DNA of 64,000 nt from a bacterium (lineage in GTDB: Bacteria; UBA10199; 2-02-FULL-44-16; JAAZCA01): contig JBAZOP010000003.1 in assembly GCA_041648665.1 (NCBI GenBank), forward strand, positions 69,082 to 133,081, in the 5' to 3' direction. Made by a program: the position numbers and the translations under genes. Positions 1-57,941 of this stretch are shown piece after piece. Numbering within the stretch: the first letter of the stretch is position 1; the number at the start of each line of letters is the position of its first letter. The notes below the pieces were generated by a model. It was not told the DNA's origin and searched no databases. It saw nothing but the letters and a program-made list of their open reading frames with translations.

Positions 1-3000
1 TGTTCTGCTCATTGAACGTGAGGTACCCCTCCTCGAACATCCGCGCACGGAGGACTCGTGACGGCTTGACGGCCCCTGGCGCACTGATGTCGATGCCGTG
101 TTTGCTCTTCAGGTACATCGTGAGTCGCTCATCGTACTTGAGAGGAGCGTGGCGAGGCCTACCCTCTTTGTCGATCTCTTCCATCATCTCCGTAGGCTCT
201 TCGAGCGTCGGGTGCTCTTCCCGCGCCTCTGCGATCGCTTCGTCCTGTTCCATCCCCTCTTGCATCTTGGCGTCGATGTCCTGCTGTATTCTGGCAAACG
301 ACGCGTCCGCGGCTTTGCCGACGATCTCGTAGATACTGATCGGAGGGATCTTCACCCCTGCCCCAAACCTGTCCTGCTTGCCGGTCTCCTCCTGGAATTT
401 CTTGTCCAGTTCCGCCATTTGCTTCTTGGCGGTGTCTCGCGCGCTCGTGTCGAACTTGAACTCGTGGTAGTAGTCTCCCCACACCTGTAGCCAGTTCACG
501 AGGTCGTCGATCGCAACCGTTGTGCGCATGACGCTGGGGCGGATGCCTTGGAGCTGCTCGATCCACTTACGCATCTGCGCGCGCTCTTCTTCTGGCAGTG
601 AGAGCAGAGGGTCTCGATCGAAGAACCACTTCGGCAGATCGCGCATCGCGGCGAGAGCGGGGTAGCTCGTCTCCTTCATCTGCCCCCAGGTTGTGGCATC
701 TGCCCACTCGATGGCTTGCAGGAACCCCTCGTCGATCTTGGCGCGGTGCTCCTGCCTGATCGCCACCATGCCGCCGGAATACATCCCCACCGTCGCATGC
801 CGCCAGTCTGGTCTGCCTACGCCCTCACCCTTCTTCTTGGCGACGCCCATGAACTTGATCTCTCGACCGGGCTGGAAGATGACACGGTTCTTCTCCGTGT
901 CGTCCACACGGAAGCTCCGCGTGTCGATGCGTGTGGCGCGCTCGGTGAACGGGATCCAGTTGTAGGGCCTGCGAATGAGCGGCTGCACGGCCATGTCGCC
1001 GTGGACCGCAAACCACTCCACGATCCTTTCGGCCATGTGTTCGCGAACGATCCCAAGCTCCCCGGGCGAGGCGCTAGCCTTGAAGTCAATCCACTTGTCC
1101 CCGCGCTTGACCATGATCGACTGGAACTGCTTGGACGCAACGGTCGTGATCTCCGTAATCCAGGCGACCAGCGCCAGCGCAGCCGTGGGGCCCTTCTCGT
1201 TCCAGAAGCGCTTGTAGAGGTTCTGGAGCCCCTTGAGTACGTCCCAGTTCGGTTCGGTCTCGGGCTGCGTCTGGAAGTGGCTCAGAATGGGAGCCATGTC
1301 CTGCTCGGCCCAGGTGTTCTTGCGGCCCGCCCACCACGGTAGCCTGGAGGTGTGTCCAATCCGGTAGGTGAGTACGGCTCCCTGTCCCTTGGGCACGTCA
1401 TGGGGGTCCATGTGGACTTCCGGCAGGTAGAGCCTGAGCTTGTCCACGCCGGTCTGGTACGCCCACTCGGGGCTCTTGAGCGGCTTGTCGGAGACGGCGA
1501 TTCGCTCGCGGCGCGGACGCTGTTCTTCCCCTGGCTGCTGCCCCACGAACGGCGTAGGCACTTTGCGCCCCTCGGGCTCGGAGGCGATGATGCGCTCGTC
1601 GTCGAGCGGGCTCCCGCGCCGCCTGTGCATCCGCTGCGCTTCCTCGGTGGACATCACATCGCCCTTCTCCGCCTTGGCGATGTACGCGCCGATGATCACA
1701 ACGGAGTCGGGCTGGATGTGCACGTAGCCCTCGGTCGTCTTGATGCTCTCGTGCCCGAGCAGCGCTTGGATCTCGTCCAGGGGCATCCCCGCTTCCCTGG
1801 CGCAGGTGGCCCCGTAGTGCCGGAAGTTGTGGGCGTGGATCCGCTTGCGCTCGTCAGCGTTCAGACCCCGCTGCATCCCGCTCTTCACTTCCACAACGCG
1901 CGCTCGTTCCGCCAACGCGTAGAGCATGCGCCGAAGCCCGCTCGTATCCAGCGGCTCCAGGGCCGTCTGCTCCGGTTGCCCGTCGCGTTCGTTGGTGCCC
2001 CAGCGGACCAGCGACGGCACGATGGGCGCATTGGGGTTGGTCATCAGAGCTGCGCAGTACCTCGCCCAGTGCGACGGTTGAAGCTCGCCAGTCTCGGGAT
2101 TGACTTCGTTTTCTTGCGCTCGCTGCCGAAGGCCTTGATCGAAGGCGACCATGGCATCGCGGATCTCGCTGGACAACGGGATCTCGCGCGTCTTGTCGCC
2201 TTTGCCGCTGCGGATGCTCAGGGTGAGCAAACCGTTCTTCTCGTACAGATCCTTTCGCAGGGCTCCGACAAGCTCCTCGGATCGAAGGCAGGCGTGTGTG
2301 AGAAGGTAGAGAGCAAGCGTGTCCCGGAGCGATTCGAGGTTGGGACCGGCGGCGGCGCGGAAGATGGACTTGCGGAGAGGGTGGGTGAGCATCACCTCGC
2401 GCGCCGCGCGCTTGCGCTCCTCGCGGGCTCCACGCAGAGCGATTCGGGCGGGTTCCTTCCACACGTTGACGCGAAGCGGTGCTTCTCCGTGCGGCCCTGC
2501 GTCCCCCTTGAGCATCTCGCTCCAGATGGCGCTCAGGCCCGACAGGTACGTCGCGATCGAGCCCATCTTGATCGAGGCTCGCTTCTCGGGCACCACGTAG
2601 CGGTAGACCATCGGGTCGCGCTCCTTGCGCGTCCAGATGCGTCCCTGCTCCTTGCGCACTTCGATGCTCCTCGGGAGTCGGTACATCCATCGGTAGTCCC
2701 GGATGAGCATGCCCAGGCGCTTGTGCAACTGGGACAGGTCGTCGGTCCCGTCAGGCTTCTTGGGAACGAACTTGGCGCGCGTGGCGGGCGTGAGCATCTC
2801 GTAGATTTCGAGGATGTTCACCTGTCTGCCTCCGCGGGATGCCTTCTCGACGGCGCTGTAGATCATCCACGAGTCCATGCCGCTGGCCCGCACGATCATG
2901 CCTCGGATGTCGGGCGGATCGGTGCTGCGCATCCACTCGTACAGCTCCATCGCGACCCGGCGCGTGACCTCGTCCGGGTCCAGCTCCCTGCCGAACTTCG

Positions 3001-3253
3001 CCCTCATCCAGTAGGTGAAAATCTCCAGCGACTTGAGGTACACGCGGATCGTGTTGGAAGCGTCCTGGGGCTTGTTGCGGAGCCTGCGCTTGCCTCGGAG
3101 ATCCTCGCGCCGCACGCCCTTCGCGCTGTCCTTGAGACGAGAGACGAGCCGCTGGATCGCGTCCACGTACTTGGACTGCTGATCGACTTGGGAGTCCTCG
3201 AAGTACCCGAGTGCGTCGGGGCGGTTCGGGCGCGTGAGATCGAAGTCAGACAC
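1..3253 (-). CDS. Very large tyrosine recombinase/integrase-like protein (>=1084 aa, 3' end beyond window); catalytic HxxR...LGHESIKTTEGYxH region encoded ~1710-1870
   Basis: Minus frame open from the window edge to a GTG at 3251-3253 preceded by GGAG. Translation contains ...RIHAHNFRHYGATCAREAGMPLDEIQALLGHESIKTTEGYVHIQ (tyrosine recombinase box II and catalytic Tyr). No ORF is listed in this frame because it runs off the edge. The plus-strand ORF 1352..3286 is its R/L/G-rich antisense. Confidence 0.75.
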   Translation of the reverse strand, partial: MSDFDLTRPNRPDALGYFEDSQVDQQSKYVDAIQRLVSRLKDSAKGVRREDLRGKRRLRNKPQDASNTIRVYLKSLEIFTYWMRAKFGRELDPDEVTRRVAMELYEWMRSTDPPDIRGMIVRASGMDSWMIYSAVEKASRGGRQVNILEIYEMLTPATRAKFVPKKPDGTDDLSQLHKRLGMLIRDYRWMYRLPRSIEVRKEQGRIWTRKERDPMVYRYVVPEKRASIKMGSIATYLSGLSAIWSEMLKGDAGPHGEAPLRVNVWKEPARIALRGAREERKRAAREVMLTHPLRKSIFRAAAGPNLESLRDTLALYLLTHACLRSEELVGALRKDLYEKNGLLTLSIRSGKGDKTREIPLSSEIRDAMVAFDQGLRQRAQENEVNPETGELQPSHWARYCAALMTNPNAPIVPSLVRWGTNERDGQPEQTALEPLDTSGLRRMLYALAERARVVEVKSGMQRGLNADERKRIHAHNFRHYGATCAREAGMPLDEIQALLGHESIKTTEGYVHIQPDSVVIIGAYIAKAEKGDVMSTEEAQRMHRRRGSPLDDERIIASEPEGRKVPTPFVGQQPGEEQRPRRERIAVSDKPLKSPEWAYQTGVDKLRLYLPEVHMDPHDVPKGQGAVLTYRIGHTSRLPWWAGRKNTWAEQDMAPILSHFQTQPETEPNWDVLKGLQNLYKRFWNEKGPTAALALVAWITEITTVASKQFQSIMVKRGDKWIDFKASASPGELGIVREHMAERIVEWFAVHGDMAVQPLIRRPYNWIPFTERATRIDTRSFRVDDTEKNRVIFQPGREIKFMGVAKKKGEGVGRPDWRHATVGMYSGGMVAIRQEHRAKIDEGFLQAIEWADATTWGQMKETSYPALAAMRDLPKWFFDRDPLLSLPEEERAQMRKWIEQLQGIRPSVMRTTVAIDDLVNWLQVWGDYYHEFKFDTSARDTAKKQMAELDKKFQEETGKQDRFGAGVKIPPISIYEIVGKAADASFARIQQDIDAKMQEGMEQDEAIAEAREEHPTLEEPTEMMEEIDKEGRPRHAPLKYDERLTMYLKSKHGIDISAPGAVKPSRVLRARMFEEGYLTFNEQN

Positions 3254-3983
3254 CGCTATGCTCCGCGTTCGGATCCGACGCGCTGAAATGCCGGATCTCG
3301 TCGTTGATCTTCGTGCAGAGCGTCTCGCCCTCGCCCATCGATCCGCGCAGCCACCGCAGGTGGACTTCTCCGTGTGTCGGATGCTTGCCCGTGACCTCTA
3401 CCCTGCCATCGGACAGCTTGCACTTCGTTGCCGGGATGCCCTGGGCGATGCACTCGCGCACGAGCCCTTCGAGCCTGTCCTGCTGGTAGGACGAACGCGG
3501 CGTTCTCGCCCTCGGCTTGGTGTCGCGCTTGCGAGGGGCGTCTGACGGCTCGACGATGTCCTCGTCATCGTCTTCGTGCACAACGAGCGGGGAGGTGTCC
3601 AGCCCGAGCGACTGCGCGCGCATGTGCAGCGAGTGCGCTTCCTCACCGTCTGCCAGCTCGCAGGCGAACACGATGAGAAGCTCCAGCAGTTCCCGGAGCG
3701 ATGTGCGCCAGGACTCCTCGATGCTGCTTCCCAGGGCCTCGAACAGCACCTCGAACTTGCGGAACTTGTCGGGGCCCATGTTCTGCTTGAGAGCCGGGCT
3801 CTGCACCGCCGTCTTGCACATCTGGATCAGCGCGACCGTGCCGCCTGCGATCATCATCGTGGCTGTGGCGCAGGCCTGGGCAGTGACGGCGACCTCCCGC
3901 GACTCCTTGTTCTCTTCGAGAACCGCGATGGCGTACGAAACGAGGCGAAGGTCGAGACTTCGGCGCAACTTGCCTTGCTGCAT
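3246..3983 (-). CDS. hypothetical protein (~245 aa)
   Basis: Protein-like translation. The track start at 4019 is TTG; an ATG at 3983 (MQQGKLRR...) follows an intergenic palindrome. Confidence 0.6.
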   Translation of the reverse strand: MQQGKLRRSLDLRLVSYAIAVLEENKESREVAVTAQACATATMMIAGGTVALIQMCKTAVQSPALKQNMGPDKFRKFEVLFEALGSSIEESWRTSLRELLELLIVFACELADGEEAHSLHMRAQSLGLDTSPLVVHEDDDEDIVEPSDAPRKRDTKPRARTPRSSYQQDRLEGLVRECIAQGIPATKCKLSDGRVEVTGKHPTHGEVHLRWLRGSMGEGETLCTKINDEIRHFSASDPNAEHSGV

Positions 3984-4003
3984 GGCGATGATAGTGCGCC
4001 TAC

Positions 4004-4020
4004 GTTGCACTATGTGCAAC
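4004..4020. promoter_or_regulatory. perfect palindrome GTTGCAC-TAT-GTGCAAC, candidate operator
   Basis: 7-bp inverted repeat with a 3-nt spacer in the 66-nt intergenic region upstream of gene 3246..3983. Confidence 0.4.
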
Positions 4021-4049: not shown

Positions 4050-4289
4050 CTAGTATCTACGGCCTTTGATTGTTTTGGGGCGGGGCCTGGGGACCATCAC
4101 GCGCTCGATCCTGCGGGCCGTTGTGGGCATGGCTTCGTACGCGTCGGACTGCACCTTCGAGCATGCCTCCAGCTCCGGGAGCCCGAGCTTGTTGACGGCT
4201 GGCGTGTACCACCAGTTGTGGGCCTTCAGGGCGATGATCTTGCCAGTCTCGTCGATGATGCCGCCGTCGTACTTGTGGAGCGTCGTCAT
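4050..4289 (-). CDS. hypothetical protein (~79 aa)
   Basis: ORF 4050..4316 trimmed to MTTLHKYDGG...; ATGA overlap with the next gene at 4286-4289. Confidence 0.5.
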   Translation of the reverse strand: MTTLHKYDGGIIDETGKIIALKAHNWWYTPAVNKLGLPELEACSKVQSDAYEAMPTTARRIERVMVPRPRPKTIKGRRY

Positions 4290-4873
4290 CTCTTCCACCC
4301 TTGTTCGCGCAGGCATCCTTCGATGTCAGGCGGCTTCCAGCCCTCTGGCTTCATCTGTTTGAGATTCACGATCGGCCCCCCGAGCTTGGTCATGTTGGCT
4401 CGGTGCACCTCCTCCGCGATCGGCCCGCCGTCGATGCCGAAGGCGATGCGGGAGCCCTCGACGACGTAGTCGGTGTCCGCGAACCCGTCAGCTGCGGCAG
4501 GAAGATCGACATCGACTTTCAGGCTGTCCAGGCAGTCGAGAGTCGTGCGCTTGAGATGCCCGAGCACACCTGCCCCGTGATCCGGCCTCTTGTCGTAGCA
4601 TGCTTCCGCAACCTCGAATGCCTCTTCCAGTACGAGTCGAACACGCAGCCTTACCGTCGCTTCGTCAGGGACCGTAGGCGTCGAGTTCTGGACTTGACCG
4701 ACCGCCTCCATGAACTCCTTCACCTGACAGTGTACCTTGCTCACCGCGAAGTCCGCGATCTGGGCAAGGATGCCGTGTACTGCCTCGTGCCACGTGAGGC
4801 AGCCGGGCTCAGGATCCTCCAGCAGCATTGTCAGCTTCTTCGACAATCCCAACAGCTTCTCGATGTTGCTCAC
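4286..4873 (-). CDS. MazG-like nucleotide pyrophosphohydrolase (tentative)
   Basis: 195 aa; helical EExxE-type segments (VRLRVRLVLEEAFEVAEAC) reminiscent of the MazG/HisE fold. Confidence 0.45.
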   Translation of the reverse strand: MSNIEKLLGLSKKLTMLLEDPEPGCLTWHEAVHGILAQIADFAVSKVHCQVKEFMEAVGQVQNSTPTVPDEATVRLRVRLVLEEAFEVAEACYDKRPDHGAGVLGHLKRTTLDCLDSLKVDVDLPAAADGFADTDYVVEGSRIAFGIDGGPIAEEVHRANMTKLGGPIVNLKQMKPEGWKPPDIEGCLREQGWKR

Positions 4874-5697: not shown

Positions 5698-5858
5698 TTC
5701 TCCTCCCTCGCGCGCAACTTGCGTATGCGCTCAATCTGCTCGTTGTTCTCCCTGATGCCTGCGCTACACAGCATCATGATGCGCGTGCAGCCGATGACGA
5801 CCGCGATGTCGCACAACACGGTGAGCGCTAGGAGCGTTATGTAGATGTAGTAGCCCAT
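5694..5858 (-). CDS. small membrane protein (~54 aa)
   Basis: MGYYIYITLLALTVLCDIAVVIGC...; its ATG overlaps the TGA of the SNF2 gene (ATGA at 5855-5860). Confidence 0.45.
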   Translation of the reverse strand: MGYYIYITLLALTVLCDIAVVIGCTRIMMLCSAGIRENNEQIERIRKLRAREEK

Positions 5859-7954
5859 CACTCTTCCCTCAACACTTCCGCCAGCGTCCCCTGCTTCTCG
5901 GTCCCCATGAGCCTCGCCAGGATCTCCGCTGGCAACTGCTTGTGGTAGCGGGGCAGGATGCGCTTGGCGAGTGCGACCTCGCCGTCTGTCAGCTGCCTTC
6001 GCTTGGCGATCTCTGCGACGCGCCTGCCCATGTGAGCGTGCGCTCCGGAGAACCCCATGCCGTCCCTCTGGCGAGCCCCGTCGCACAGCGCCGAGACCGC
6101 CAGGAAGCCCGCAGAGGCCGCTCCGCGCTCTTCGTCCGTCGCCACGGGCCAGACGATCTTGGGAGGCTTCGGAGGCTCCACGGGGCCAATGCGAGCAGCC
6201 GCGGTGTGCTCCAAGGCAGCGTCCGCGATCTGTTGCTTGCGAATGACCTTGGCGAGCATTACAGCGTCCAGGCTCTCGTCCACGGCGAGATGCTGGATGA
6301 GCACGGCGTTCCGCTGGGAAATCCTATGAATGCGATCTTCTGCTTGGCTCAGGTCTCCGGGCACCCAGGAGCTTTCGACGAACGCCATGTAGTCGGCTGC
6401 GGTCAGGGTGAGCCCGACGCCCGCCGCTTGGATGCTTCCGATGAACACCCTGATTTTCGGGTCGGACTGGAAGCGGTCCACGATGGCGAGCCGATCGTTC
6501 TGCGGAGTCGGGCCGTAGACGCACACGGCTTCGCTGCCATAGTGGGCGACAAGCTGCTCGATGACCGCGTGGTGGTGCGCCATGACGACGATCTTGGGCC
6601 GCTCCTCCAGGACGAGATCGAGATGCTCGAACACGGACGGGAGCTTCGCCAGGGCGAGCTTTTGCCGCTCCACCGAGATCGTCTTGAAGTCGATGTCCGC
6701 AATGGTCTGGCAGAGCCGGTCGAGCGCCATCTCGTACGCGACCGTGTCCCCGCCCGCTTCGGCCAAGTCCACCTCGGCAGCGAGCACATCGATCTGCCCG
6801 CTCTGCTTCGTCCATGCGGCGTGCTCCGCCTTGACCGCGGCAGACGCGCCCGTGGGCGGGAGGAACACGATTTGTCTGGTTTTCTTCGGCAAAAAGGGCA
6901 AAACGTCGGACTTTGCGCGTCGGATCATTACCGTCGATCTCATGCGTTCTTGCAGTTCTTCGAGGCGGCTCGCGCCGTCCGTGTGCCACACCTCGCGCGT
7001 GAATCCGCCTCGGACTCGGATGGTCTCCTTCACAGCGCCGCAGTAGCGCATCAGGAACGGCCATTCCAGGTTCCAGGTGACCGGGTCCAGGGCGTGCAGC
7101 AGCGGCCATAGCTCCTTCGGGCGGTTGGGCAGCGGCGTGCCCGTCAGGAACAGCGCGCGCTTGGCTTGGTTGATCAGTCCAAGCTGGGCAGGCTCCGCGG
7201 GTCTGCCTCGCTTCTTGTCCTCGCGTTTGCCCTTCTTGCCCAGGATGACTTCGCTCCGTTGTGCGGTGCCCGTCTTCATGCGGTGAGCTTCGTCCACGAT
7301 GAGAAGGCCCCAGGTCCGAGCCATCAGCGCTGCGCGGAGCTGGGCTGCACGCGGGCCGACAAGCCGCTCGTAGTTGACGATGACGAGATCGTTGCGAGGA
7401 TGCGGAGGATCGTTCGACTCCACAACGTGGATGAGCCGTGGGCGCACGAGCCACTTCTCTGCCTCGCGCTTCCACAACAGGCGCAGGCTTGCCGGGCAGA
7501 TGACGAGGATGCTGCCCATGTTGGGCACGGCATTGGCGACTCCGAGCGCCTCCACGGTTTTGCCAGTGCCACAAGAATCCGCCAGCAGCACATTCCTGCG
7601 CGCCAGCGCGTACTCGACGGCGGCAAGTTGGTACGGGTAGTATTCGCACCCGGGCGGCGCAGGCACTTCGAGCTTGCTGTCCGCGGCCTTGCTCGCCTCG
7701 ACGGTGCGGTAGTGATCCGCCAGCGAGTAGATCGCGGACTCGGCGAGGTACTTCTCCGCTCGGGAGGCCACCGTCTTGTCGGCGGTGAACCAGATGCGCG
7801 GCTCCATGTGAGCCTTGCAGGCTTCGCAGGCGTGGTAGCAGCGCTCGTCGCCGAAGTGGAAGTGGAAGCCCAGGCTCTTGAGATACTCGCGCGCGGGAAC
7901 GTCGTCGAAACGAATCTGCGCGTAGTAGATGCCGTGGCTGAACTCGATCTTCAT
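5858..7954 (-). CDS. SNF2/RAD54-family DNA helicase
   Basis: Motifs GTGKT (Walker A) and IVDEAH (DEAH box); C-terminal helicase domain. Start trimmed to MKIEFSHGIYY (the track start at 8053 adds an R-rich extension). Confidence 0.85.
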   Translation of the reverse strand: MKIEFSHGIYYAQIRFDDVPAREYLKSLGFHFHFGDERCYHACEACKAHMEPRIWFTADKTVASRAEKYLAESAIYSLADHYRTVEASKAADSKLEVPAPPGCEYYPYQLAAVEYALARRNVLLADSCGTGKTVEALGVANAVPNMGSILVICPASLRLLWKREAEKWLVRPRLIHVVESNDPPHPRNDLVIVNYERLVGPRAAQLRAALMARTWGLLIVDEAHRMKTGTAQRSEVILGKKGKREDKKRGRPAEPAQLGLINQAKRALFLTGTPLPNRPKELWPLLHALDPVTWNLEWPFLMRYCGAVKETIRVRGGFTREVWHTDGASRLEELQERMRSTVMIRRAKSDVLPFLPKKTRQIVFLPPTGASAAVKAEHAAWTKQSGQIDVLAAEVDLAEAGGDTVAYEMALDRLCQTIADIDFKTISVERQKLALAKLPSVFEHLDLVLEERPKIVVMAHHHAVIEQLVAHYGSEAVCVYGPTPQNDRLAIVDRFQSDPKIRVFIGSIQAAGVGLTLTAADYMAFVESSWVPGDLSQAEDRIHRISQRNAVLIQHLAVDESLDAVMLAKVIRKQQIADAALEHTAAARIGPVEPPKPPKIVWPVATDEERGAASAGFLAVSALCDGARQRDGMGFSGAHAHMGRRVAEIAKRRQLTDGEVALAKRILPRYHKQLPAEILARLMGTEKQGTLAEVLREE

Positions 7955-7956
7955 GC

Positions 7957-8640
7957 CTATCCTCGCGCCCCGGCAACCGTCATCGCGTTGGCGAACTCGG
8001 TCATGTACGGCAGGCGAAGGATCCACGCGCAGACACCTTCCGGCCCCGACCACTCGGGCATGCGGTGGCTCCTGCGGTCGAAGTACATCTTGAGCGCGGT
8101 CTCGTAGTTGAACGAATAGGTGGCCTTCTGCAAGAAGCTCTCGGGCAAGTGCATCTTGAGAAGGTGAAGCCGCTCGGGGGTCTTGTCGGAGCGGTACATT
8201 GCTCCAAGCCCGTTCACGTACTCCAGTTGGGCTTGCGTGATGCAGCCACCCTCAAAGTCGGACCGCTCCAGGTCGCGGCTTCCGAGCTTGTGCATCGTCG
8301 AGCACGAGTTGCGGACCGTCGAAACCTTGTACGTGTCGAGTTCCTGCCAGATCGCCCGCGGGATCGTGATGTCCCACCACACCTGGATCTGCCTCAAGAA
8401 CTTCCGGTGCGCACCACCGCCGCGGATCAGCGACAGGGCAAGCTTCATGTCGTCGGGGCCGATGGCGGGTTTTTCTGAGGACTTGATCCCGTAGTCATTG
8501 AGCGTCCAGCGATCGGAGTCATCCTCGAACCGACTGTCTGACTTCGCCCACGACTCCATGGGGTTCCTCATCCCACGCAAAGCCGCCCTCCAGCCGTAGA
8601 CCTCAACGTTCTCGATTTTCATGTTGCTTCCTTCCGTCAC
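7957..8640 (-). CDS. hypothetical protein; distant ThyX-like pattern but lacks the RHR motif
   Basis: 227 aa. Segments WRAALRGMRNPMES and ITIPRAIWQELDTYKVSTVRNSCS loosely resemble the ThyX RAARVSY and RQWFRHRIASY...S.R blocks, but the catalytic RHR is absent. Confidence 0.5.
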   Translation of the reverse strand: MTEGSNMKIENVEVYGWRAALRGMRNPMESWAKSDSRFEDDSDRWTLNDYGIKSSEKPAIGPDDMKLALSLIRGGGAHRKFLRQIQVWWDITIPRAIWQELDTYKVSTVRNSCSTMHKLGSRDLERSDFEGGCITQAQLEYVNGLGAMYRSDKTPERLHLLKMHLPESFLQKATYSFNYETALKMYFDRRSHRMPEWSGPEGVCAWILRLPYMTEFANAMTVAGARG

Positions 8641-11960: not shown

Positions 11961-12713
11961 TCAGTCCCTCGTCTCCTCCGCAGAGTGCGTCATCGCCCTT
12001 CGCGCAACGATGACTCGCTCACCGTGCCCAGGCAGACGAATCGGCGGGTGCGTGGCGTGCTCAATGGCCCCTGGCCCCAGGCGCACGACATGCCCCGAAG
12101 GCAAGTTCGGCATCTTCGGCCCAAGGCCTCGAATGACCGCGATGTCACCCTGGCGTCGCACGATCTGGTTGGAGCACGACCGCCAGATCCAGTCGATGGC
12201 AGAGCGTACAGAGGCGAGCCCGGACGGTACCGCATGGGCGAAGAACGTCCCGCTCTCGTTGCGGCCCACCACGAACCGACTGCTCGTCTCCTTCGGGTAC
12301 CACTTGGAGGACTTGGCGTAGACCCGCTTGCGCGTGACCTCGATGAGAGCGAGCCCCGCGTGGCCTGAGTCGCAGTACGGCACCTGAGCCGCCAGCCCCG
12401 GGCCCACATAGTCGACCACGTTCGTGCTGCGGTAGTCGCCCCGTGTCGAACCATGCTCGTCGAAGTACAGCTGAGCCATGCGGGCGAGCCCGCGCCCCTG
12501 CCGCTGCATCTTCTGCGCCTCCCATCCGGACGCAGTCGGCGCGTACGGTTCGGCGAGGCCCAGCAGAGCCACGATGGCAACGTGCCGGGCGTTGACGAAC
12601 ATGCGTTTGGAAGGAGCCCCGCGCTTGCCAGCGATGGCTCGCTCCGCGGCCTTCTCCAGCTGGTCAAGCTGCGTCGTCTTGTCGTAGCTTCGGATGGCCT
12701 GTTTGAGGCTCAC
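11961..12713 (-). CDS. hypothetical protein (~250 aa)
   Basis: Track ORF 11961..13343 trimmed to a GTG at 12711-12713 that overlaps the ParB stop (GTGA). Confidence 0.5.
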   Translation of the reverse strand: MSLKQAIRSYDKTTQLDQLEKAAERAIAGKRGAPSKRMFVNARHVAIVALLGLAEPYAPTASGWEAQKMQRQGRGLARMAQLYFDEHGSTRGDYRSTNVVDYVGPGLAAQVPYCDSGHAGLALIEVTRKRVYAKSSKWYPKETSSRFVVGRNESGTFFAHAVPSGLASVRSAIDWIWRSCSNQIVRRQGDIAVIRGLGPKMPNLPSGHVVRLGPGAIEHATHPPIRLPGHGERVIVARRAMTHSAEETRD

Positions 12714-13594
12714 TTGCCGCTCTCCGTATCGATGCAGGCGTCCAGGGCCTTGTCGTCTCCGAACATCCATCGCATGGCCGCGAGGACTCCCTTGCCCATG
12801 GGCGAAAGGGTCTTCTCGCGCGCCGCCAGCGCTTCCATCTGCGGGGCCACTGCCTTGGCAGGGCGCAGCCGGAACTTGGGAGCCTTGCGCTTGCGCCCGC
12901 GGCCTCCCCTGGCTTCCTTCGCTTCCTTCGCCGCCTTGGGCGACCTCACGCTCAGGAGCCCCGCCGCCTCGAACTCCAGGATCTTGGCGTCCTGCTCGGC
13001 CTCGGGCAGCGTGGACAGGTCTCGGGCCACGCTCACGGCTAGCCGTTCCTGCTCCAGGAGCTTCTGCACGACGGCGCTGCACGACAGCAGCATCAGGGCG
13101 CTGCGCATGCCCCTGGCGTCGAAACCGAACCGAATCCTGGCCTGCTTCTCGTCGTGCCCCGCGTCGAGGTACCGGCGCAGCTTGAGCGCTTCGACCATGG
13201 GCGTGTCGTCCGTTCGGATTGAGTTGCGGGTGATCATGTAGCCCATGCTCTCCTCGCCGTTCGCGCGGCGGGAGGTGGCGGGCACCAGCCAGTGTTTGTC
13301 GCTGCCAGCTTCCTTCAGGCGACGGTTGGCCTCGATGCAGCACCGCACCCTCTGCCGTCCGTCGATGACCTCGACGATGGGGTTGCCGTGCTTGTCCTCG
13401 CCGTTCTTCCGGACCATGACCGGATCGAGCACGCCGTCTGCCATGATGGACAACACCAGCGATTCGTCCAGCGGGAGGTGAACCCGCTCGTCGTACAGCG
13501 GGTGACTCTTGTCCGTGACAATCGTCAGCGCCTCGGGTTCGTAGTTGTATCCGTTCAGGCGCGCTACCGCGCCGAACTCTTCCGCTCTGCTCAT
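12710..13594 (-). CDS. ParB-like nuclease (ParB/Srx) domain protein
   Basis: N-terminal ParB-like domain (LTIVTDKSHPLYDERVH...IEVIDGRQRVRCCIEA) with a basic C-terminal tail. Confidence 0.8.
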   Translation of the reverse strand: MSRAEEFGAVARLNGYNYEPEALTIVTDKSHPLYDERVHLPLDESLVLSIMADGVLDPVMVRKNGEDKHGNPIVEVIDGRQRVRCCIEANRRLKEAGSDKHWLVPATSRRANGEESMGYMITRNSIRTDDTPMVEALKLRRYLDAGHDEKQARIRFGFDARGMRSALMLLSCSAVVQKLLEQERLAVSVARDLSTLPEAEQDAKILEFEAAGLLSVRSPKAAKEAKEARGGRGRKRKAPKFRLRPAKAVAPQMEALAAREKTLSPMGKGVLAAMRWMFGDDKALDACIDTESGK

Positions 13595-13626: not shown

Positions 13627-14334
13627 CTACGATGTCAATGCCTTGGCGCTGCCGCCTGTGAGCCCGGGTCTGCCCAGGTTCAGACTGCGGCCTGCCTCCA
13701 GGCCACGGTTGTAGGCGCAGGCGTCGCTGATCGACGACCGGACCGCCACGGTCTTCGTCCCGTTGGTAAGCGCCTCCCGAAACGCTTGCGCCTCGCCCTG
13801 CCGCTTGTCGATCACGGCCAGCGCGCTGGTAGATGCCGTTGCCCGGACTTCCTGCTTCGCCGCTTCGAGCTTCTCGCGGATGCCCGCGACGGCCCCCAGG
13901 TACCAGGAGGCGAAGGCGCTGCGCCCCATGCCCCGGCACTGCGCCTCCGCGAGCCTGCCCAGCTCATTCAGAGCATAGGCCAGCAGGTACTTGACCGACT
14001 CCACGTCGGACTTGCGCCCAACGAACTGGTAGGTGGTCACGCGCGTGTAGCGAGGCCGTGAAAACCACATCGAACAGCCGTTCGCTTTGACCAGGGCGAG
14101 CATCAGCCGCACCTTCCAGGTCGCCACGCGGCTGCCCTCCATCAGGACTTCCCCCGCCTCGACCATGGGCTCGGACGGCTCCTGCCCGCTGGCCTCCAGC
14201 TCAGCCACGCTCAGCCGGTGCTCGTCAATGAGCCGCTGGGCCGCGCCCATAGCTGCCGCGGCTTCGTTCTCGTTGCTGCTCTGCGCGAGCCGCAGGAGCT
14301 TGCGAACCTTGTCCAGGACGGGAGATAGATCCAT
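13627..14334 (-). CDS. DUF2786-family protein
   Basis: N-terminal LDKVRKLLRLAQSSNENEAAAAMGAAQRLIDEH matches the DUF2786 signature common in phages. Confidence 0.7.
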   Translation of the reverse strand: MDLSPVLDKVRKLLRLAQSSNENEAAAAMGAAQRLIDEHRLSVAELEASGQEPSEPMVEAGEVLMEGSRVATWKVRLMLALVKANGCSMWFSRPRYTRVTTYQFVGRKSDVESVKYLLAYALNELGRLAEAQCRGMGRSAFASWYLGAVAGIREKLEAAKQEVRATASTSALAVIDKRQGEAQAFREALTNGTKTVAVRSSISDACAYNRGLEAGRSLNLGRPGLTGGSAKALTS

Positions 14335-25288: not shown

Positions 25289-25363
25289 TGACTTGTGCTC
25301 CTGCTTTGTGCGGCGGGATTGCCGCATCAGTGCGCGTACCCGTGCGGGCGTACGCGCGTGGGG
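25289..25363 (-). repeat. SAS + two-hairpin element #14
   Basis: SAS variant cattgacttgtgctcctgcttt; hairpin gcggcgggattgccgc; long stem gcgcgtacccgtgcgggcgtacgcgc. Confidence 0.75.
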
Positions 25364-25660
25364 TCAACCGACCCGCTTGGACGCGCCAGCGGTTTCCATC
25401 TCCGCCACCAGTGCGCGCACCGCAGCGTCGCCACCCTTGTCGCTGTAGACGTGGTGCGGACGCCCGATGCGCCCCTCGAAGTCCCACCCTTCGTAGCCGT
25501 CGCGGCGCGCGAAATCGATCCGCGTTCCGTCTGCGCGTTCCAGGTAGAACTCTCCGAAGCCCATGTGATGCAGGGTTCCGAAGCGGTTGCAAGCGTTCAG
25601 GAAGTCGGAATCCCCGACAACCTTCTCGCTTCCATCAATCTGCTTGATCGTGTGAGGCAT
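25364..25660 (-). CDS. hypothetical protein (~98 aa)
   Basis: Trimmed to MPHTIKQIDGSEK... after an SAS. Confidence 0.5.
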   Translation of the reverse strand: MPHTIKQIDGSEKVVGDSDFLNACNRFGTLHHMGFGEFYLERADGTRIDFARRDGYEGWDFEGRIGRPHHVYSDKGGDAAVRALVAEMETAGASKRVG

Positions 25661-25731
25661 TGACTTGTGCTCCTGCTTTGAGAGGCGGCACCATACCGCC
25701 TTCAGTGCGTACGCGGGCGCGTACGCGAGGC
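25661..25731 (-). repeat. SAS + two-hairpin element #15
   Basis: cattgacttgtgctcctgcttt; hairpins ggcggcaccataccgcc and gcgtacgcgggcgcgtacgc. Confidence 0.75.
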
Positions 25732-26079
25732 TCAGTCCTCTGCGGTCTCTGGACGGGAGAACGGAAGCTGGTGACAGCCGCAACCGTGCGGGCAGCACCA
25801 TGCTTCCTTGAAGTCGTTTGTGCAGTTTCGGAGGCGTTCCGCTAGCTCGTAGATTTTGTTCGCCAGGGTTTCGTTGCACAAGCAATCGGCCCCGCAGAGC
25901 GCACGCTGGTAGCGGCGTTCGTCAAAATCAGTCCGAGCGTTCCACCTCGGATGGAAGTAGCCACCGGAGCTTGCTTTCCATTCCGCGTACACCACAAGCA
26001 ACCACTCGCGCGGCTGATCGTGAATGTTCTCGTACAGGTCAGCGTATGCCTCCGGTGCGTGAGACCATTCGCATGTCAT
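25732..26079 (-). CDS. Cys-rich protein (115 aa)
   Basis: CGADCLCNE and CCPHGCGCH clusters; starts at an SAS. Confidence 0.55.
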   Translation of the reverse strand: MTCEWSHAPEAYADLYENIHDQPREWLLVVYAEWKASSGGYFHPRWNARTDFDERRYQRALCGADCLCNETLANKIYELAERLRNCTNDFKEAWCCPHGCGCHQLPFSRPETAED

Positions 26080-26200
26080 GGTTTGCTCCTGCGCTGTGCT
26101 GACGGAATTGTCAGCGGTCGGTACCCGGGAATCGAACCCGGATCTCGCGGCACCAGTTACGGTGTCGCGTGACAGCTTGCTCCTAGGCGCGTCAAACGCA
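26080..26200 (-). repeat. SAS + three-hairpin element #16, including a tRNA T-arm-like hairpin
   Basis: SAS variant catggtttgctcctgcgctg; hairpin gctgacggaattgtcagc; hairpin ccgggaatcgaacccgg, which on the minus strand reads CCGGG-TTCGATT-CCCGG (a T-stem/T-loop); hairpin cgcggcaccagttacggtgtcgcg; then a degenerate SAS, cttgctcctagg. Confidence 0.6.
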
Positions 26201-27370
26201 CCATGCCCGGCGGTCAGATGCCCCGTCAGGCCTTTTGGCTATACCGATTTTGAGGTTGCTGGCGACAGGTTGACTATTGTCGCCAGAGAGCCCCTGCCCA
26301 CGTCTTAGCGTGAGCGGCAGGAGCAGGAGCGGGATCTACTTCCCCCACCACGCTGGTATGCCCAGTCACGGGCGCGTGATGGTTTCGGAACCTGCCTGGA
26401 AGCCGTACGGTCAAAAGCCCCGGGCTATCATGCGGCAGGCTCGCGCAGCTTGGAGCAGCGCGACGATCCAAAATGTCATCCCCGTTGAATTCGATTCACG
26501 TTGCCGGTTCACCTCAGTAGCAGCGGTCCGATTTGGCATGCGTCCCCATGGACAGCCGCGGACTTGCTTGCCCCCCGTCAAAGACAAGGGGCTGAGTTTA
26601 CCCGGTACGCGGGATAGTAGCTCTAGCCGGAACGGAATCTCTCCCGTGGCCCGCGGGTATCAGCCGCAGCGCCCTGCGCGTAGGACGGCTCAGGCGATCT
26701 GAGGGACGGAGCCCAGAGGCGCAGTCACGCCGCACGGTACGCCGTGCGGTTAGGCGAGCACCGCTTGTCCGTTCGCTTGTCGGTTCCGCTTGCTAGTCTT
26801 GCTTCAGGCGTTCACGGATCCAGGAGTCCACGCGAGACCTTGAGCCTTACCGAGCCGCCAAAAGCGACCCCTATACGCGCCGGTCCGAACGGAAACCTGC
26901 CCGGTTCCCTGGTGAGGGGAGGACTTGCGCGCCCCAAATGCTGGCGCAGCAGCGGTCACATGGGCCGGGTAGACCCGTGGCAGCCATCCGCTCGACTAGC
27001 GCGCGTTGCCGCGTCGCAATCGGGGCAGATGTTGCCCTATTGCTTGCAGGGTACGCCCCGCAAGGCTGGCGTGGTCCGGTCAAGGGCACCGGCTAGGCTC
27101 ACCCCACAACAGGCAGGCTCGCCAGGGGAGCCGCCCCGCCAACCGGGGCCGCGCTCCACCCTGTTGTTGTCCTGCACCCCACCCCCTCCCCTCCTATACG
27201 TGGCGATAGTGTTTCGCTATCAGCGCGTACAGGGGGTACATCGTGGCGATAGTGCACTGGTATAGTGTATCGTATTGCAGCGTCACGCGGTGTATTGTGA
27301 GGTGGTGTGATGTATCGCTGGAGCTTGCTGTCCAGCTTGGGAACGGAGCGCGCAGGGAGCGCGTGCGACG
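26201..27370. other. ~1.2 kb non-coding hub (candidate regulatory/ori region or ncRNA)
   Basis: Only R-rich junk ORFs are present. Contains a 9-bp-stem palindrome (ctggcgaca...tgtcgccag, ~26262-26290), CGCTTG x3 repeats (~26770-26800) and AT-richer iteron-like repeats (cgtggcgatagtg x2, GTGTAT x3, ATAGTG x3) at ~27190-27320. Confidence 0.5.
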
Positions 27371-37547: not shown

Positions 37548-37751
37548 TCACGACTTCTTCTCCTGTATCCGACCGTACATCACACCCCACGAGAAGCGCC
37601 AAATAACGAACGACACGCCGCATTCGTCGAACTCAATAGCGAGCCAGCGGATCCAGACGGATCCTTCGATCAGGCGGCACGCGTAAGGCTTGACCCAGAA
37701 GGGCAGATCCAGCACCTGCCATGCCTTGCCGAAGCGGCGGAGCACTTTCAC
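37548..37751 (-). CDS. small Trp-rich protein (67 aa)
   Basis: ORF track entry. Confidence 0.4.
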   Translation of the reverse strand: MKVLRRFGKAWQVLDLPFWVKPYACRLIEGSVWIRWLAIEFDECGVSFVIWRFSWGVMYGRIQEKKS

Positions 37752-38569
37752 GGCTCCACCTCGTAGCTCGTGATCACAACCTCGCCGACCTTACCCCGCT
37801 TGCTGGCGTCGCAGTTCACGTTGCGCCGCGCCGAGACGGAGTGGATGCGGAAGCCGCCGAACATCTCGCGCACCTCGGGCGTGTCGGCCTGCGACAGCAT
37901 CACGTACGCGCCTCGCTGCCTTGCCTCGCAGCAAGACGCGCGGAGCCGCTTCAAGTCCTCCAGGCCGAAGCCGCCCGGCGTGTACGTCGTGAAGTTCGCT
38001 GTCTTGGTTAGAGGCACATAAGGCGGGTCACAGTAAGCCAGCGAGCCCTCCTCCGCGTTCGCTATGATGCTCTGAAAGTCCGCGCACATGATGCGAGCCT
38101 TCTGAAGAGCCGCGGAGCACGCGCGAAGGTTCTCTTCGTCACACGTCGTCGGCAGCTTGTCGTCCTTCCACTTGCCCCACGGCACGTTGAAGCCACCGCT
38201 CTTGTTGACGCGATAGAGGCCGTTGAAGTCGGTGTGATTCAGGTAGATCGTCCTGGCAGCCGCCGCGGCAGGGGACAGATCCGCTGGCTTCAGGCTGCGC
38301 AGCGCGTAGTACCGCTTCTCGTCGATCGGCAACTTCTTCAGCTCGTGAATCACGGAACCCACCTGAAGGGCGACTGCTAGGTAGCAGCTCACAAGCTCCA
38401 GGTTGGCGTCGGAGACGGTTGCGTGCTCCGGTGCCAGATCGAAGAACATCGCGCCGCCGCCAAGGAACGGCTCGTAGTAGTGGTTGAAGCTCTTCGGCAT
38501 CAGCGCGCGAAGCTGTGGGAGAAGCTGGGTCTTCCCACCTGCCCAACGGAGCAGGGGATAAGCCTTCAC
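37748..38569 (-). CDS. dam: DNA adenine methyltransferase (Dam/D12 class)
   Basis: N-terminal YPLLRWAGGK motif and DPPY motif IV (AYCDPPYVPL). GTG start at 38569; the track start at 38731 adds R-rich antisense. Confidence 0.85.
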   Translation of the reverse strand: MKAYPLLRWAGGKTQLLPQLRALMPKSFNHYYEPFLGGGAMFFDLAPEHATVSDANLELVSCYLAVALQVGSVIHELKKLPIDEKRYYALRSLKPADLSPAAAAARTIYLNHTDFNGLYRVNKSGGFNVPWGKWKDDKLPTTCDEENLRACSAALQKARIMCADFQSIIANAEEGSLAYCDPPYVPLTKTANFTTYTPGGFGLEDLKRLRASCCEARQRGAYVMLSQADTPEVREMFGGFRIHSVSARRNVNCDASKRGKVGEVVITSYEVEP

Positions 38570-39081
38570 GTCGCCCCCGTCATGCGTCGGACATGCGTCA
38601 CGAAGTCCTGCCCTGGCCGCACGTTGTGCTTCTCCAGGTAGTGGGCGAAGCCCTCGGGCCACACGAACGTCCCATCGGTCAGGTCTGCGTCGCCCATCTC
38701 CGCGTCGTCGATGCCGCACTTGAAGCGGCACGTGGAGTAACCGAAGTAGCGCTCCAGGACGCGACCCTTGCGCAGGTACGCGATCACCATGCCGCGCTCG
38801 GCAGGATCCCAGGAAGGGTCAACGAAGTCCTTCGGATCCGGAAGAGACAGCAACGATTGCAGACGAACGTTGCCCGCGAGCCACGTGAGAATGCCAAGTG
38901 ATCGAGGAGTCTGGATAGCCTCAATGAGCCTGTGGAAATCCGATGGCTGCCTATCGGCTGACGGCGGTCTCCAGTACCCGATAGCCCGAAGCCCTTGCGT
39001 GCCCTCGATATTGTCGGGGTGCTTAGGCAGAACCATCGACTTAGGCTGCTCGATCACGGCGTCGCCCCCATCTCCTTGCAC
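38566..39081 (-). CDS. hypothetical protein (171 aa)
   Basis: GTGA overlap with dam. Confidence 0.55.
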   Translation of the reverse strand: MQGDGGDAVIEQPKSMVLPKHPDNIEGTQGLRAIGYWRPPSADRQPSDFHRLIEAIQTPRSLGILTWLAGNVRLQSLLSLPDPKDFVDPSWDPAERGMVIAYLRKGRVLERYFGYSTCRFKCGIDDAEMGDADLTDGTFVWPEGFAHYLEKHNVRPGQDFVTHVRRMTGAT

Positions 39082-39618: not shown

Positions 39619-39845
39619 CACAGTCCAGCCTTCCTGCGCATGGCAGCAACGTTGCTGGCCGACAGCGCCAACGATGCGCGACTCTCCGCCCGCGCTTCTG
39701 GCGACTTCACGGAGAAGCGCCGATACCCGTTGCGGCCAATCGGGCAGTCGTAGCACTCGTACTCCGCTCCGTACCCAAACCCGTAGTCGGGCGTGGTCAG
39801 TCCGACACGCTCGGATCCGCACCAGATGCACTTTACGCCGCTCAT
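39618..39845 (-). CDS. zinc-ribbon protein (~75 aa)
   Basis: CIWCG...CYDCP motifs. Confidence 0.45.
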   Translation of the reverse strand: MSGVKCIWCGSERVGLTTPDYGFGYGAEYECYDCPIGRNGYRRFSVKSPEARAESRASLALSASNVAAMRRKAGL

Positions 39846-40882
39846 CGGATCTCCGTGGCGGAAACCCCGCCCTTCAGGCCGGGGAGGAGCCGCGTCCTCC
39901 ATGCGTTGTAGGTCAGGAAACGCACATCTGCTGGCTTCGCGTTCTGGCAAAGGCGCTTACCATCTGCCACTGCGAGCAGGCTGATCCTCCCAGCCATCGT
40001 CCCGCCAACGTAGACCAACCCGTACTTCGGGTGCGTGACCAGCGATCCTCGCTTCAGTCCACGACTGCGCGTGCCCCCGTACGCCTTGCGAACCCCGCCC
40101 TTCGCGGGCTGAAGCATGTGCAGTTGTCGCCGATGCAGTCGGATCGGCGAGACGCACATCATCCGCTTGTTCTCTGGCAGAATGTGCCCACCGACGTACC
40201 AGTTGGCGAGCACCCAGCTGTCCACGCAGTGCGCCTCGAAGACTTCCGACATCTTCGACTTGGACTTCTTGAGCCCCGCGGCATTGCGCAGCTCGAACGT
40301 CTCCCACCCTTGCTTCACGTGCACGTTGCCGAAACGCTTCAGCTCTTCGTAAAACCACGCCTTACCGACTTCGAGCGGGGAGAAGCTGCGGTTCCACTTC
40401 CGCTGCCACTTCTTGGTCTTCGCCCTGATGTCCTCGACGGCGATGTCGGTGATCGGAAACACCTTCGCGAGCTGCTCGACGATGCGCAACTTCCACTGCC
40501 ATCGTGCCTTCGTGCTCGGAGGAAGACCCCCGCGAGCACGGTTCTTCCTGCACGCCCGATAAGGCGTCTTACGGGACCGACGCGCCCGACGCATGTTGTG
40601 GCGCACCTCCACGGCATCCTTGACGTGCCGCACAGCATCCGCCTGGATGTTGAGCAGCGTGTGCGCCTCAGACTTGACCGTGAACCCTTCCTTCTTCGAT
40701 CCGGGATCGATTCCAACCACAACTGGCTGCAAGACTCGACTAGACGGCTCAACGTTCAGGCGGATGCAGAAGATGCCTCGCTTCCAGAAGGGCGTTGCCT
40801 TCCTCGATGCGACCATCTGCCGCGCTCGCTTTTCCGAGCACGGCATCAATGGCATCCGCTGACTGTCAACAACTGGAACCAC
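39842..40882 (-). CDS. isrB: IsrB (HNH-less IscB-type OMEGA RNA-guided nickase)
   Basis: N-terminal PLMP motif (QRMPLMPCSEK); RuvC-I QPVVVGIDPGSKKEG; Arg-rich bridge helix; RuvC-II IAVEDIR; RuvC-III EAHCVDSW; no HNH insert. Strong positional match to OgeuIscB blocks. Confidence 0.8.
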   Translation of the reverse strand: MVPVVDSQRMPLMPCSEKRARQMVASRKATPFWKRGIFCIRLNVEPSSRVLQPVVVGIDPGSKKEGFTVKSEAHTLLNIQADAVRHVKDAVEVRHNMRRARRSRKTPYRACRKNRARGGLPPSTKARWQWKLRIVEQLAKVFPITDIAVEDIRAKTKKWQRKWNRSFSPLEVGKAWFYEELKRFGNVHVKQGWETFELRNAAGLKKSKSKMSEVFEAHCVDSWVLANWYVGGHILPENKRMMCVSPIRLHRRQLHMLQPAKGGVRKAYGGTRSRGLKRGSLVTHPKYGLVYVGGTMAGRISLLAVADGKRLCQNAKPADVRFLTYNAWRTRLLPGLKGGVSATEIR

Positions 40883-52764: not shown

Positions 52765-53619
52765 TTACCACACGGTTTGCACCATCGGGTGATGTAGTAG
52801 ATGTTCTCGGCTCAGTGCCTGCTCGACGTATTCTCGATACCTACCCACGTCGCGACTGACGCGCCGACCGAACCGCTTTGGCCCATCCATGTGCAGAATC
52901 ACCTTCCCAGGCGTGTCTGACATCAGGCTGTACTTTTCCGGATCCAGTTGCACAGGAGAAATGTCCGCTTCCATCGCTGCGCAGTTCATCGGAGTATTCT
53001 CAGGAAGGATCGCCAAGGCTCGCGCGTTCGGATGCGCAATACCGAACTCCGACGTGCGCTGAAACATCTGGATCACCTTCTCACACCGTCGCACAAACAA
53101 GAATGCTGCCCCGAAGTACGGCCTCCTGTTCAGTGCGTCCTGTTCTGGCAAGTTGAAGAAACTCTTCAATTCTGCACCCGAATCGGGGCAGATGTCCAGA
53201 CGACTGCCAAGATCGCTTCTGCATCTGGCATGGTCGTGCCTAAGCTCTACCGTGCTTGAATGCACCTGCATGTACGAGGAGTTGTCCACTACGGCTGCCA
53301 GCCCGGTCCTGTGAGACTCCTTGATCCCTTCATGCAGCGAAGCAAGTGGCACGGTGTCCGCGTCGAGAAGCACGACCTCCCTGTCGCCTGCGCAGCTGAG
53401 TAGGTGCAACCACGATCTGGGCTTGCGAATGTAGTGCTGCGGATACTCGTCATCCACAGGGCGGTGCTCTATCCAGTCCGGGAAGTCTCTGGCATACTTC
53501 TGGGGGCTGTAGACGATCACCGTCATATCAGGATCTGCGCGTCTCGCGCAGCATGCGCTTATCAGCGCCATGCCGACGTAGATCCCGTCCGCGTAGTACG
53601 CAAGGATCGTCTGGCTCAC
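52765..53619 (-). CDS. nucleotide-sugar glycosyltransferase (DxD type)
   Basis: VVLLDADTV DxD motif; GTG start with GTGA overlap. Confidence 0.5.
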   Translation of the reverse strand: MSQTILAYYADGIYVGMALISACCARRADPDMTVIVYSPQKYARDFPDWIEHRPVDDEYPQHYIRKPRSWLHLLSCAGDREVVLLDADTVPLASLHEGIKESHRTGLAAVVDNSSYMQVHSSTVELRHDHARCRSDLGSRLDICPDSGAELKSFFNLPEQDALNRRPYFGAAFLFVRRCEKVIQMFQRTSEFGIAHPNARALAILPENTPMNCAAMEADISPVQLDPEKYSLMSDTPGKVILHMDGPKRFGRRVSRDVGRYREYVEQALSREHLLHHPMVQTVW

Positions 53620-57412: not shown

Positions 57413-57941
57413 GTCTGAGGCCGTGCATTCGGCAAGAGAAGACGTGAACGATGGCAAGAAGATCGTCGGAAAGCTCCCGCTCGGGGCTGTGTTCAGTCTG
57501 ATTGAGAACCACGAGTTCTCCACCGTTATGTTCGAGAAGATGCCCGAGAAGTTCGACACCAAAGCGGGCAAGGCGGTCCTTGTGGGCAACCACAACCGTG
57601 AGCTTTGCTCCGCGTGCCAGTCGGTCCAGTAGGGAGAGCAATCCTTTACGCTTGAAGTTGAGCCCACTCCCGATGTCTTTGACAATTTCTGCGTTCGGGA
57701 AGCGCTGTCGCATGTAGATGATCTGTCTTGCGAGGTCATCCTTCTGCTTGGGAGAGGAGACCCGGCAGTAGCAGACAATAGCTGGAGGCAGGCCGTCCTT
57801 GACGAAGGAATCGACATCGAGAAGCCGCTGGCCAGCAGCGTTGCGCACGTGTTTGATGAGCCCTTCATCGGCGTACTTCCGGATCGTGTTCGGGCACATG
57901 CCAAGAATCTGGCAGGCCATCCGCAGTGGAACCAACTTCAT
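57369..57941 (-). CDS. tnpA: IS607-family serine recombinase TnpA (MerR-like HTH + resolvase domain)
   Basis: N-terminal MerR-type HTH (LRMACQILGMCPNTIRKYADEG) and catalytic serine VCYCRVSSPKQKDD. Confidence 0.8.
   Translation of the reverse strand: MKLVPLRMACQILGMCPNTIRKYADEGLIKHVRNAAGQRLLDVDSFVKDGLPPAIVCYCRVSSPKQKDDLARQIIYMRQRFPNAEIVKDIGSGLNFKRKGLLSLLDRLARGAKLTVVVAHKDRLARFGVELLGHLLEHNGGELVVLNQTEHSPERELSDDLLAIVHVFSCRMHGLRRYAAQIKEDPDLPH

Follow-up and report, generated by a model that had tools for sequence, protein, structure and literature searches.

A giant tyrosine recombinase with a conserved C-terminal extension, from a family almost confined to uncultivated phages of large size

The window analysed here is a stretch of 64,000 nucleotides (nt) from contig JBAZOP010000003.1 (positions 69,082 to 133,081; GenBank assembly GCA_041648665.1), with a GC content of 63% and mostly small open reading frames (ORFs) on the minus strand. 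At its left edge, at the distal end of this leftward gene array, lies the gene of a giant tyrosine recombinase. Translation of positions 1-3253 gives a stop-free minus-strand frame of 1084 codons from a GTG at 3253 to base 2, while 5' of this GTG the same frame is closed 50 codons upstream. The start codon is preceded by a Shine-Dalgarno motif (Table 1), and the TGA of the upstream gene (3246-3248) makes an 8-nt overlap with the start of the recombinase. The ORF is absent from the standard ORF listing, for the sole reason that its frame runs off the window edge. The GC content at third codon positions (GC3) is uniformly high along the frame, at 0.84.

A full-length database twin with 100% identity is available: NCBI protein MFA4971468.1 (here P0001), with a length of 1301 amino acids (aa), recorded as 'MAG: site-specific integrase [bacterium]' on a contig of 134,065 bp. 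The same 1301-aa protein is present in two deposits, on the 134,065-bp contig (NCBI, ENA, Logan) and on a contig of 134,037 bp (JGI). The near-equal sizes of both contigs hint that about 134 kb may be the complete genome. The last 217 residues of the protein lie beyond the left window edge; a search with an exact 42-mer from this edge gave no match in viral or metagenome contigs. The first-pass annotation had described a single, very large tyrosine recombinase with a central catalytic domain and a long C-terminal extension that is truncated at the edge of the window. Its open frame was read as starting at the GTG at 3253, in the most distal position of the leftward operon, with some 470 aa before its motifs and at least 570 aa after them. 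This description holds: about 470 aa precede the HxxR motif, and the catalytic tyrosine (Y510) is followed by 574 aa in the window and 791 aa in the full protein.

A similar picture would arise from an assembly or annotation error by which the frame of an ordinary integrase continues into the next gene, and high-GC DNA does produce long spurious frames. One of these is the plus-strand ORF at 1352-3286 (644 aa) opposite the recombinase gene, which is read as a shadow ORF of GC-rich DNA rather than a gene, since it overlaps the confirmed recombinase gene in DNA of 63% GC. However, the recombinase is the identical protein in both deposits, its GC3 is uniform, and 112 long homologs (21-67% identity) are colinear with it across the junction and up to the extreme C-terminus. 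The alignment of P0001 with ten full-length homologs, which are 35-67% identical to it and 1121-1633 aa long, extends from the first residues to the conserved extreme C-terminus, and because these ten are colinear end to end, a frameshift or a two-gene fusion is excluded. A split into two genes, named in the first-pass annotation as what would overturn it, was thus not seen among the 112 homologs, which share the layout. Based on this sequence comparison, the chance of an artefact appears negligible and the homolog set refutes it.

The catalytic domain is recognised by several independent profiles. Pfam PF00589 (Phage_integrase) matches aa 298-514 with 63.3 bits (cut-off 27.1), PHROG_1 'integrase' matches at 8.6e-23, PHROG_216 'integrase' is matched as well, and the best PDB profile match is XerD (6e-16). 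With the NCBIfam models, scores of 71.6 bits for XerA (cut-off 220), 66.1 for XerC (335) and 55.5 for XerD (330) were obtained, so the XerC/XerD/XerA equivalog level is not reached, although these three remain the nearest NCBIfam models. The expected motifs, placed by the first-pass annotation near 1710-1870, map to nt 1724-1831 and do not fail in Pfam, PHROG, PDB or NCBIfam profile searches. The HxxR motif is formed by H475-R478 (nt 1820-1831) and the LGHESIKTTEGYVH (LGH...Y) motif by H501-Y510 (nt 1724-1753). The complete catalytic set of R324, K351, H475, R478, H501 and Y510 is intact. In an alignment of 112 family members of at least 1000 aa, on which all conservation figures are based, R324, K351, H475, R478 and Y510 are invariant (112/112) and H501 is conserved in 111 members. 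The protein also shows the two-domain clamp fold of tyrosine recombinases, i.e. a core-binding and a catalytic domain. The N-terminus consists of a SAM-like core-binding domain with an insertion, probably a winged helix, and no Pfam arm-binding family was found in P0001.

P0001 is too long for a single structure prediction. Therefore, the ortholog P0006 (1121 aa, 43% identical, same synteny) was modelled with a 62-sequence family alignment as input, resulting in a mean predicted local distance difference test (pLDDT) score of 81.9 and a predicted template modelling score (pTM) of 0.55. The model consists of a helical N-terminal domain (25-275), a catalytic domain (284-535, mostly pLDDT >90), a disordered proline-rich linker (554-572) and C1 (576-735), which is a mixed domain. 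Next comes a disordered loop (738-755), at the place where P0001 and part of its clade hold a beta-rich insert of about 90-100 aa, and then C2 (760-1033), a helical domain, followed by charged helices of low confidence (1034-1106) and a short terminal helix bearing the conserved LPxPxxLxxA. The extension of about 790 aa was shown to comprise two folded domains, a charged low-complexity segment and a conserved tail. The beta-rich insert is absent from P0006, P0008 and P0011; its strands correspond to residues 181-268 of a C-terminal-only model, with a pLDDT of about 65-82. No Pfam match was found for C1, even at E<=10, or for the beta-rich insert, and C2 has no match in PDB, BFVD or Pfam. The idea that the extension is a degenerate second recombinase module was rejected, as neither C1 nor C2 reached a probability above 1.1% when compared by hhalign with the N-terminal and catalytic domains.

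Within the extension, P655, W698, W747, D881 and R1110 are invariant among the 112 long members, and R737, H739, H1088, E1105, R1109, R1113 and E1156 are nearly so. C1 carries the motifs SRLPWWAGR..W...MAPILS..Q, GPTAA, W698, REH (R737/H739) and W747, while the C2 motif inside the window is DLPxWFFxxDPLLxLPxxER..W...LQG. The most conserved block (aa 1085-1156) is located just past the window edge and contains TIVH, DSECVxRRxxRxLWE and VPCP. Two cysteines in this block, C1106 ('SECVxRR') and C1151 ('VPCP'), co-vary, with both being present in 91 of the 112 members, neither in 20 and only one of them in a single member. This pattern suggests contact between the two, as a disulfide or by sharing a metal site.

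A profile of the extension only (alignment A2, P0001 aa 585-1301) was scored against 1.84 billion cluster representatives (50% identity). Of the 155 matches obtained at E<=1e-3, 129 reached E<=1e-10 and 41 reached E<=1e-30. With few exceptions, these proteins are 1100-1630 aa long and carry the extension at an equivalent relative position, while shorter matches are fragment-like. When 35 diverse members were scanned, PF00589 was present in all of them and the SAM-like N-terminal domain in six, with no further Pfam domain. Judged by this conservation, the extension is real and under selection.

Outside large uncultivated phages, the family is hardly seen. A tblastn search of 50,697 deposited phage records and 72,556 plasmids with P0001 and the divergent P0041 gave matches at the level of the catalytic domain only. 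Two peptide-pattern scans, based on the most conserved C-terminal peptides of the family, covered 185,579 bacterial and archaeal species genomes (one genome per species) and retrieved a single 2.8 kb contig, from an Elusimicrobia metagenome-assembled genome (MAG). A pattern for the same conserved block retrieved 22 viral contigs of up to 182 kb from IMG/VR. One further family member is binned in a Planctomycetota MAG. Full-text literature searches gave no description of this giant recombinase family. It is an undescribed family of giant tyrosine recombinases (about 1100-1630 aa) occurring almost only in large uncultivated phages, and we conclude that it represents a known enzyme class with a new architecture.

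The surroundings of the gene are those of a phage. The ORFs in the window match 46 PHROG families at E<1e-5, and the SNF2 helicase encoded upstream of the recombinase is 32-35% identical to helicases of large phages, its relatives being found in Thermus phages MN1 and phiLo, Rhodothermus phage RM378, Phaeobacter phage MD18 and Caulobacter jumbo phages. In four homolog loci, the recombinase is the last gene of a same-strand block, after a DUF2786/DUF7168 protein, the SNF2 helicase and either one protein of about 250 aa or two; downstream, convergent genes follow (GT4 glycosyltransferases, DnaJ and unknowns). In 22 further IMG/VR loci the recombinase is single-copy, usually with the SNF2 helicase within 10 kb and often with DUF2786 nearby. 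Based on these data, we conclude that the element is a large phage with the recombinase in its DNA-metabolism region, and the gene was shown to be a conserved single-copy core gene of an uncultivated lineage of GC-rich large phages with contigs of 90-180 kb.

Directly upstream, a 257-aa protein without a match in Pfam, PHROG or NCBIfam is encoded, which is probably translationally coupled to the recombinase. The corresponding cluster (c16) is also represented in L004 and L005/L020, in addition to the two related loci listed in Table 1. This partner is a candidate accessory or directionality factor.

Table 1. Coordinates of the recombinase gene, its encoded domains and the other annotated features of the window
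Feature	Position (nt)	Strand	Basis
Giant tyrosine recombinase gene, codons 1-1084 of 1301	2..3253	-	Open frame; GC3 0.84; identity to P0001; full-length homologs
Start region: GGAG 3261-3264, 7-nt spacer, GTG 3251-3253	3251..3264	-	Sequence read directly
N-terminal helical domain (aa ~22-285), SAM-like core-binding	2399..3190	-	
Insertion of ~115 aa in core-binding domain (aa ~110-225), probably winged helix	2579..2926	-	
Catalytic domain (aa 298-514)	1712..2362	-	PF00589, PHROG_1, XerD match, residue conservation
Catalytic codons	R324 2282-2284; K351 2201-2203; H475 1829-1831; R478 1820-1822; H501 1751-1753; Y510 1724-1726	-	
Pro/Arg-rich linker (aa ~530-590), length-variable, predicted disordered	1484..1666	-	Alignment; pLDDT <50 at P0006 554-572, P0001 585-653
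C1 (aa ~592-751)	1001..1480	-	P0006 576-735 pLDDT 80-95; P655, W698, W747 invariant
Beta-rich insert between C1 and C2 (aa ~765-852)	698..961	-	Alignment gaps; modelled strands
C2, first part (aa ~872-1084 of ~872-1177)	2..640	-	P0006 760-1033 pLDDT 80-96; D881, R1110 invariant
Upstream partner, 257 aa, no known family	3246..4019	-	41-44% identical proteins directly upstream in L001, L002
MazG-like pyrophosphohydrolase	4286-4873		
SNF2-family helicase	5858..8053	-	Pfam SNF2-rel_dom, Helicase_C
ParB-HTH (helix-turn-helix) protein	12710-13594		
DUF2786/DUF7168 protein	13627..14334	-	Pfam; same domain pair upstream of recombinase in L001, L002
Dam methylase (N6-adenine methyltransferase)	37748-38731		
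RRXRR/HNH-like protein	39842-40882		
TnpB / IS605 OrfB (Cas12f-like)	56243-57904	-	
SLT transglycosylase	57971-58717		

Besides these genes, several other features were observed in the window and in the related loci. Near the recombinase of one clade, a UvrD-family helicase with a Hint/LAGLIDADG intein is encoded (L007, 14460-17582, minus strand), and a TnpB gene also occurs near the recombinase block in L001 (1287-2495). One related phage contig carries an array of 12 tRNAs (L015, 14279-19564). Another contains a transfer-messenger RNA (tmRNA) gene with the tag peptide ENDNAQLVAA (L021, 14799-15150), situated inside the conserved phage gene order and not at a host boundary. Further methyltransferase-like ORFs are found in the window at 53616-55210. 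Together with the Dam-type and RRXRR proteins, and with the glycosyltransferases downstream of the recombinase in related loci, they may serve phage DNA modification.

Between 18249 and 25708, at least 14 intergenic cassettes precede small minus-strand ORFs, with copies at about 18249, 18621, 19360, 19851, 20140, 21062, 21806, 22388, 22881, 23336, 23553, 24803, 25296 and 25668. On the coding strand, each consists of a GC-rich hairpin, the stem of which varies while complementarity is kept, followed by CAAGCAGGAGCAAGTCA and ATG (Shine-Dalgarno and start). The cassettes look like a repeated unit of stem-loop and ribosome binding site in a phage early-gene array, by analogy with the similar T4-type promoter/stem-loop cassettes. 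The region at 25328-27370 (about 2 kb) has no convincing high-GC3 ORF and no Rfam match, contains a 12-nt tandem repeat (26761-26792) and could be a regulatory or origin region. Beyond this, scanning the window for Rfam families and tandem repeats brought nothing informative.

Candidate target sites of the recombinase were looked for in the window and in related loci. There is no tRNA gene in the window, nor does one adjoin the recombinase in 24 related loci, and an attachment (att) site at a tRNA was rejected on this basis. An invertible, shufflon-like segment was rejected as well, as five related loci have no inverted repeats that consistently border or enclose the gene. No long palindrome occurs within 10 kb in L001-L005 and none that is convincing in the window, the ends of the 134 kb contig not being covered.

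In tyrosine recombinases, the core cuts and rejoins DNA through a 3'-phosphotyrosine at paired core sites. Such enzymes clamp on these sites, form a tetramer and exchange strands via a Holliday junction. With a confidence slightly short of even, we favour the reading that the giant enzyme is an active recombinase of the Xer/Cre/IntI type acting on the phage's own genome, for which its extension and its partner would supply control. It would act during replication or establishment, for instance by resolving replication or recombination multimers, or by helping an extrachromosomal genome to circularise or persist, the part played by Cre-lox in P1. The C-terminal module with its conserved tail and the coupled 257-aa partner might then be responsible for site selection, synapsis or directionality control, for which small recombinases depend on arm-binding domains and host factors. 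The phage's own genome is favoured as the target because these phages are essentially never seen integrated and because the gene sits with replication and repair genes. Several points weigh against this. Any function of the C-terminal module is pure inference, and the extension was searched structurally by itself only as a low-confidence model (pLDDT 57). The recombination site was not found, with the downstream flank of the window itself being outside the searched sequence; in related loci the gene is packed tightly against its neighbours, and five of these loci lack consistent inverted repeats near it. A ParA partner of the ParB-like gene was not observed, so that a plasmid-prophage lifestyle is unsupported as well. 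Phage tyrosine recombinases are integrases far more often than anything else, and the position of the gene at the junction of two convergent gene blocks fits an int-attP arrangement too. Finally, exact peptide patterns can miss divergent copies, and the absence from cellular genomes also hinges on host sampling, as poorly sampled hosts, e.g. Planctomycetota, could hide prophages.

The last of these points lead to the alternative of an integrase of a temperate large phage, inserting at a host attB, in which the extension replaces the need for arm-binding or for host factors, or controls directionality. Apart from the general prevalence of integrases and the convergent gene blocks, this is in line with the two PHROG matches, the integrase label given to members by NCBI and JGI, and the members binned in the Planctomycetota and Elusimicrobia MAGs. 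However, one short contig among the species genomes stands against 22 viral contigs for the same C-terminal block. Also, members are lacking in isolate phages and plasmids, no tRNA or att candidate is adjacent, no arm-binding domain was found, relatives carry tRNA arrays and a tmRNA gene, and the gene belongs to a block for DNA metabolism, with no recognisable repressor module at its side. The integrase label, implicit in the first-pass annotation, is questionable since the family is nearly absent from cellular genomes. Routine prophage insertion into the host chromosome is less likely than action on the phage's own genome, and we consider an integrase possible but rather unlikely. Less probable again is the proposal that C1 and C2, with about 790 aa, form a new functional unit. 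It would either define self-contained, host-factor-independent 'large tyrosine recombinases', in which site recognition and directionality control are built in, or provide a second activity that has escaped recognition, as part of an undescribed genome-processing step of large phages. A topoisomerase-like or otherwise non-recombinational enzyme is improbable. It would have the fold of a tyrosine recombinase but carry out no site-specific recombination, and would instead relax or nick DNA as this is replicated or packaged, or act from within the virion on the entering genome. Type IB topoisomerases are recognised by the Topo IB fold and R-K-R-H-Y pentad without a recombinase-type core-binding domain, a combination that the giant enzyme does not show. 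The first-pass annotation had also suggested a protelomerase-like enzyme, i.e. a telomere resolvase making the hairpin ends of a linear phage or plasmid genome. The protelomerases TelK, TelN, TelA and ResT resemble the giant enzyme in being enlarged, phage- or plasmid-encoded members of the superfamily with extra domains after the catalytic domain. In sequence and fold, however, the giant enzyme is no closer to them than to other tyrosine recombinases, and this suggestion is unsupported and very improbable.

Few DNA-rearranging enzymes are understood as well as the tyrosine recombinases, which include widely used tools such as Cre, Flp and lambda Int. To our knowledge, almost all of them are 300-450 aa long and are controlled by arm-binding domains, accessory proteins or host factors. 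Here, a coherent family of three to four times the usual size was found. It is conserved in no fewer than 155 clusters at 50% identity and limited to large phages which are uncultivated and are not seen as prophages. This raises the questions why a non-integrating large phage needs such a recombinase and what 790 extra conserved residues add to a 300-residue reaction. Should the module make site recognition or directionality autonomous, the family might be of use in genome engineering; if the enzyme is an oversized integrase of poorly sampled hosts, it would be a modest addition to recombinase diversity. The enzyme is a worthwhile experimental target on account of its size, its conserved module of 790 aa, its occurrence limited to large phages that are not integrated, and the absence of any described relative.

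Among known systems, XerC, XerD, XerA and IntI4 are 'simple' tyrosine recombinases without an arm-binding domain. The giant enzyme is three to four times larger; about 115 aa are inserted in its core-binding domain, and about 790 aa extend it at the C-terminus. While the Xer and IntI4 enzymes serve chromosomes or integrons, the giant enzyme belongs to large phages, and no dif-like or attC-like site was identified for it, with no search being aimed at dif. Cre of P1 (343 aa), with which the Flp-type genome-maintenance recombinases were grouped for comparison, needs no accessory domains and its loxP site lies beside cre, whereas no site was found adjoining the giant gene, nor is a P1-like plasmid-prophage (ParA/ParB) lifestyle evident for its phage. 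The lambda-type integrases (lambda Int, HP1, P2 and Tn1549 Int) contain an N-terminal arm-binding domain, which was not detected in the giant enzyme; the latter further differs from them in having no adjacent tRNA or att candidate, in being nearly absent from cellular genomes and in its huge C-terminal extension. The large serine recombinases (phiC31, Bxb1) likewise combine a small catalytic core with a large C-terminal module. This is an analogy and not a homology; their catalytic fold and chemistry are unrelated to those of the giant tyrosine recombinases. In the serine enzymes, the C-terminal module provides DNA recognition, synapsis, directionality control and independence of host factors.

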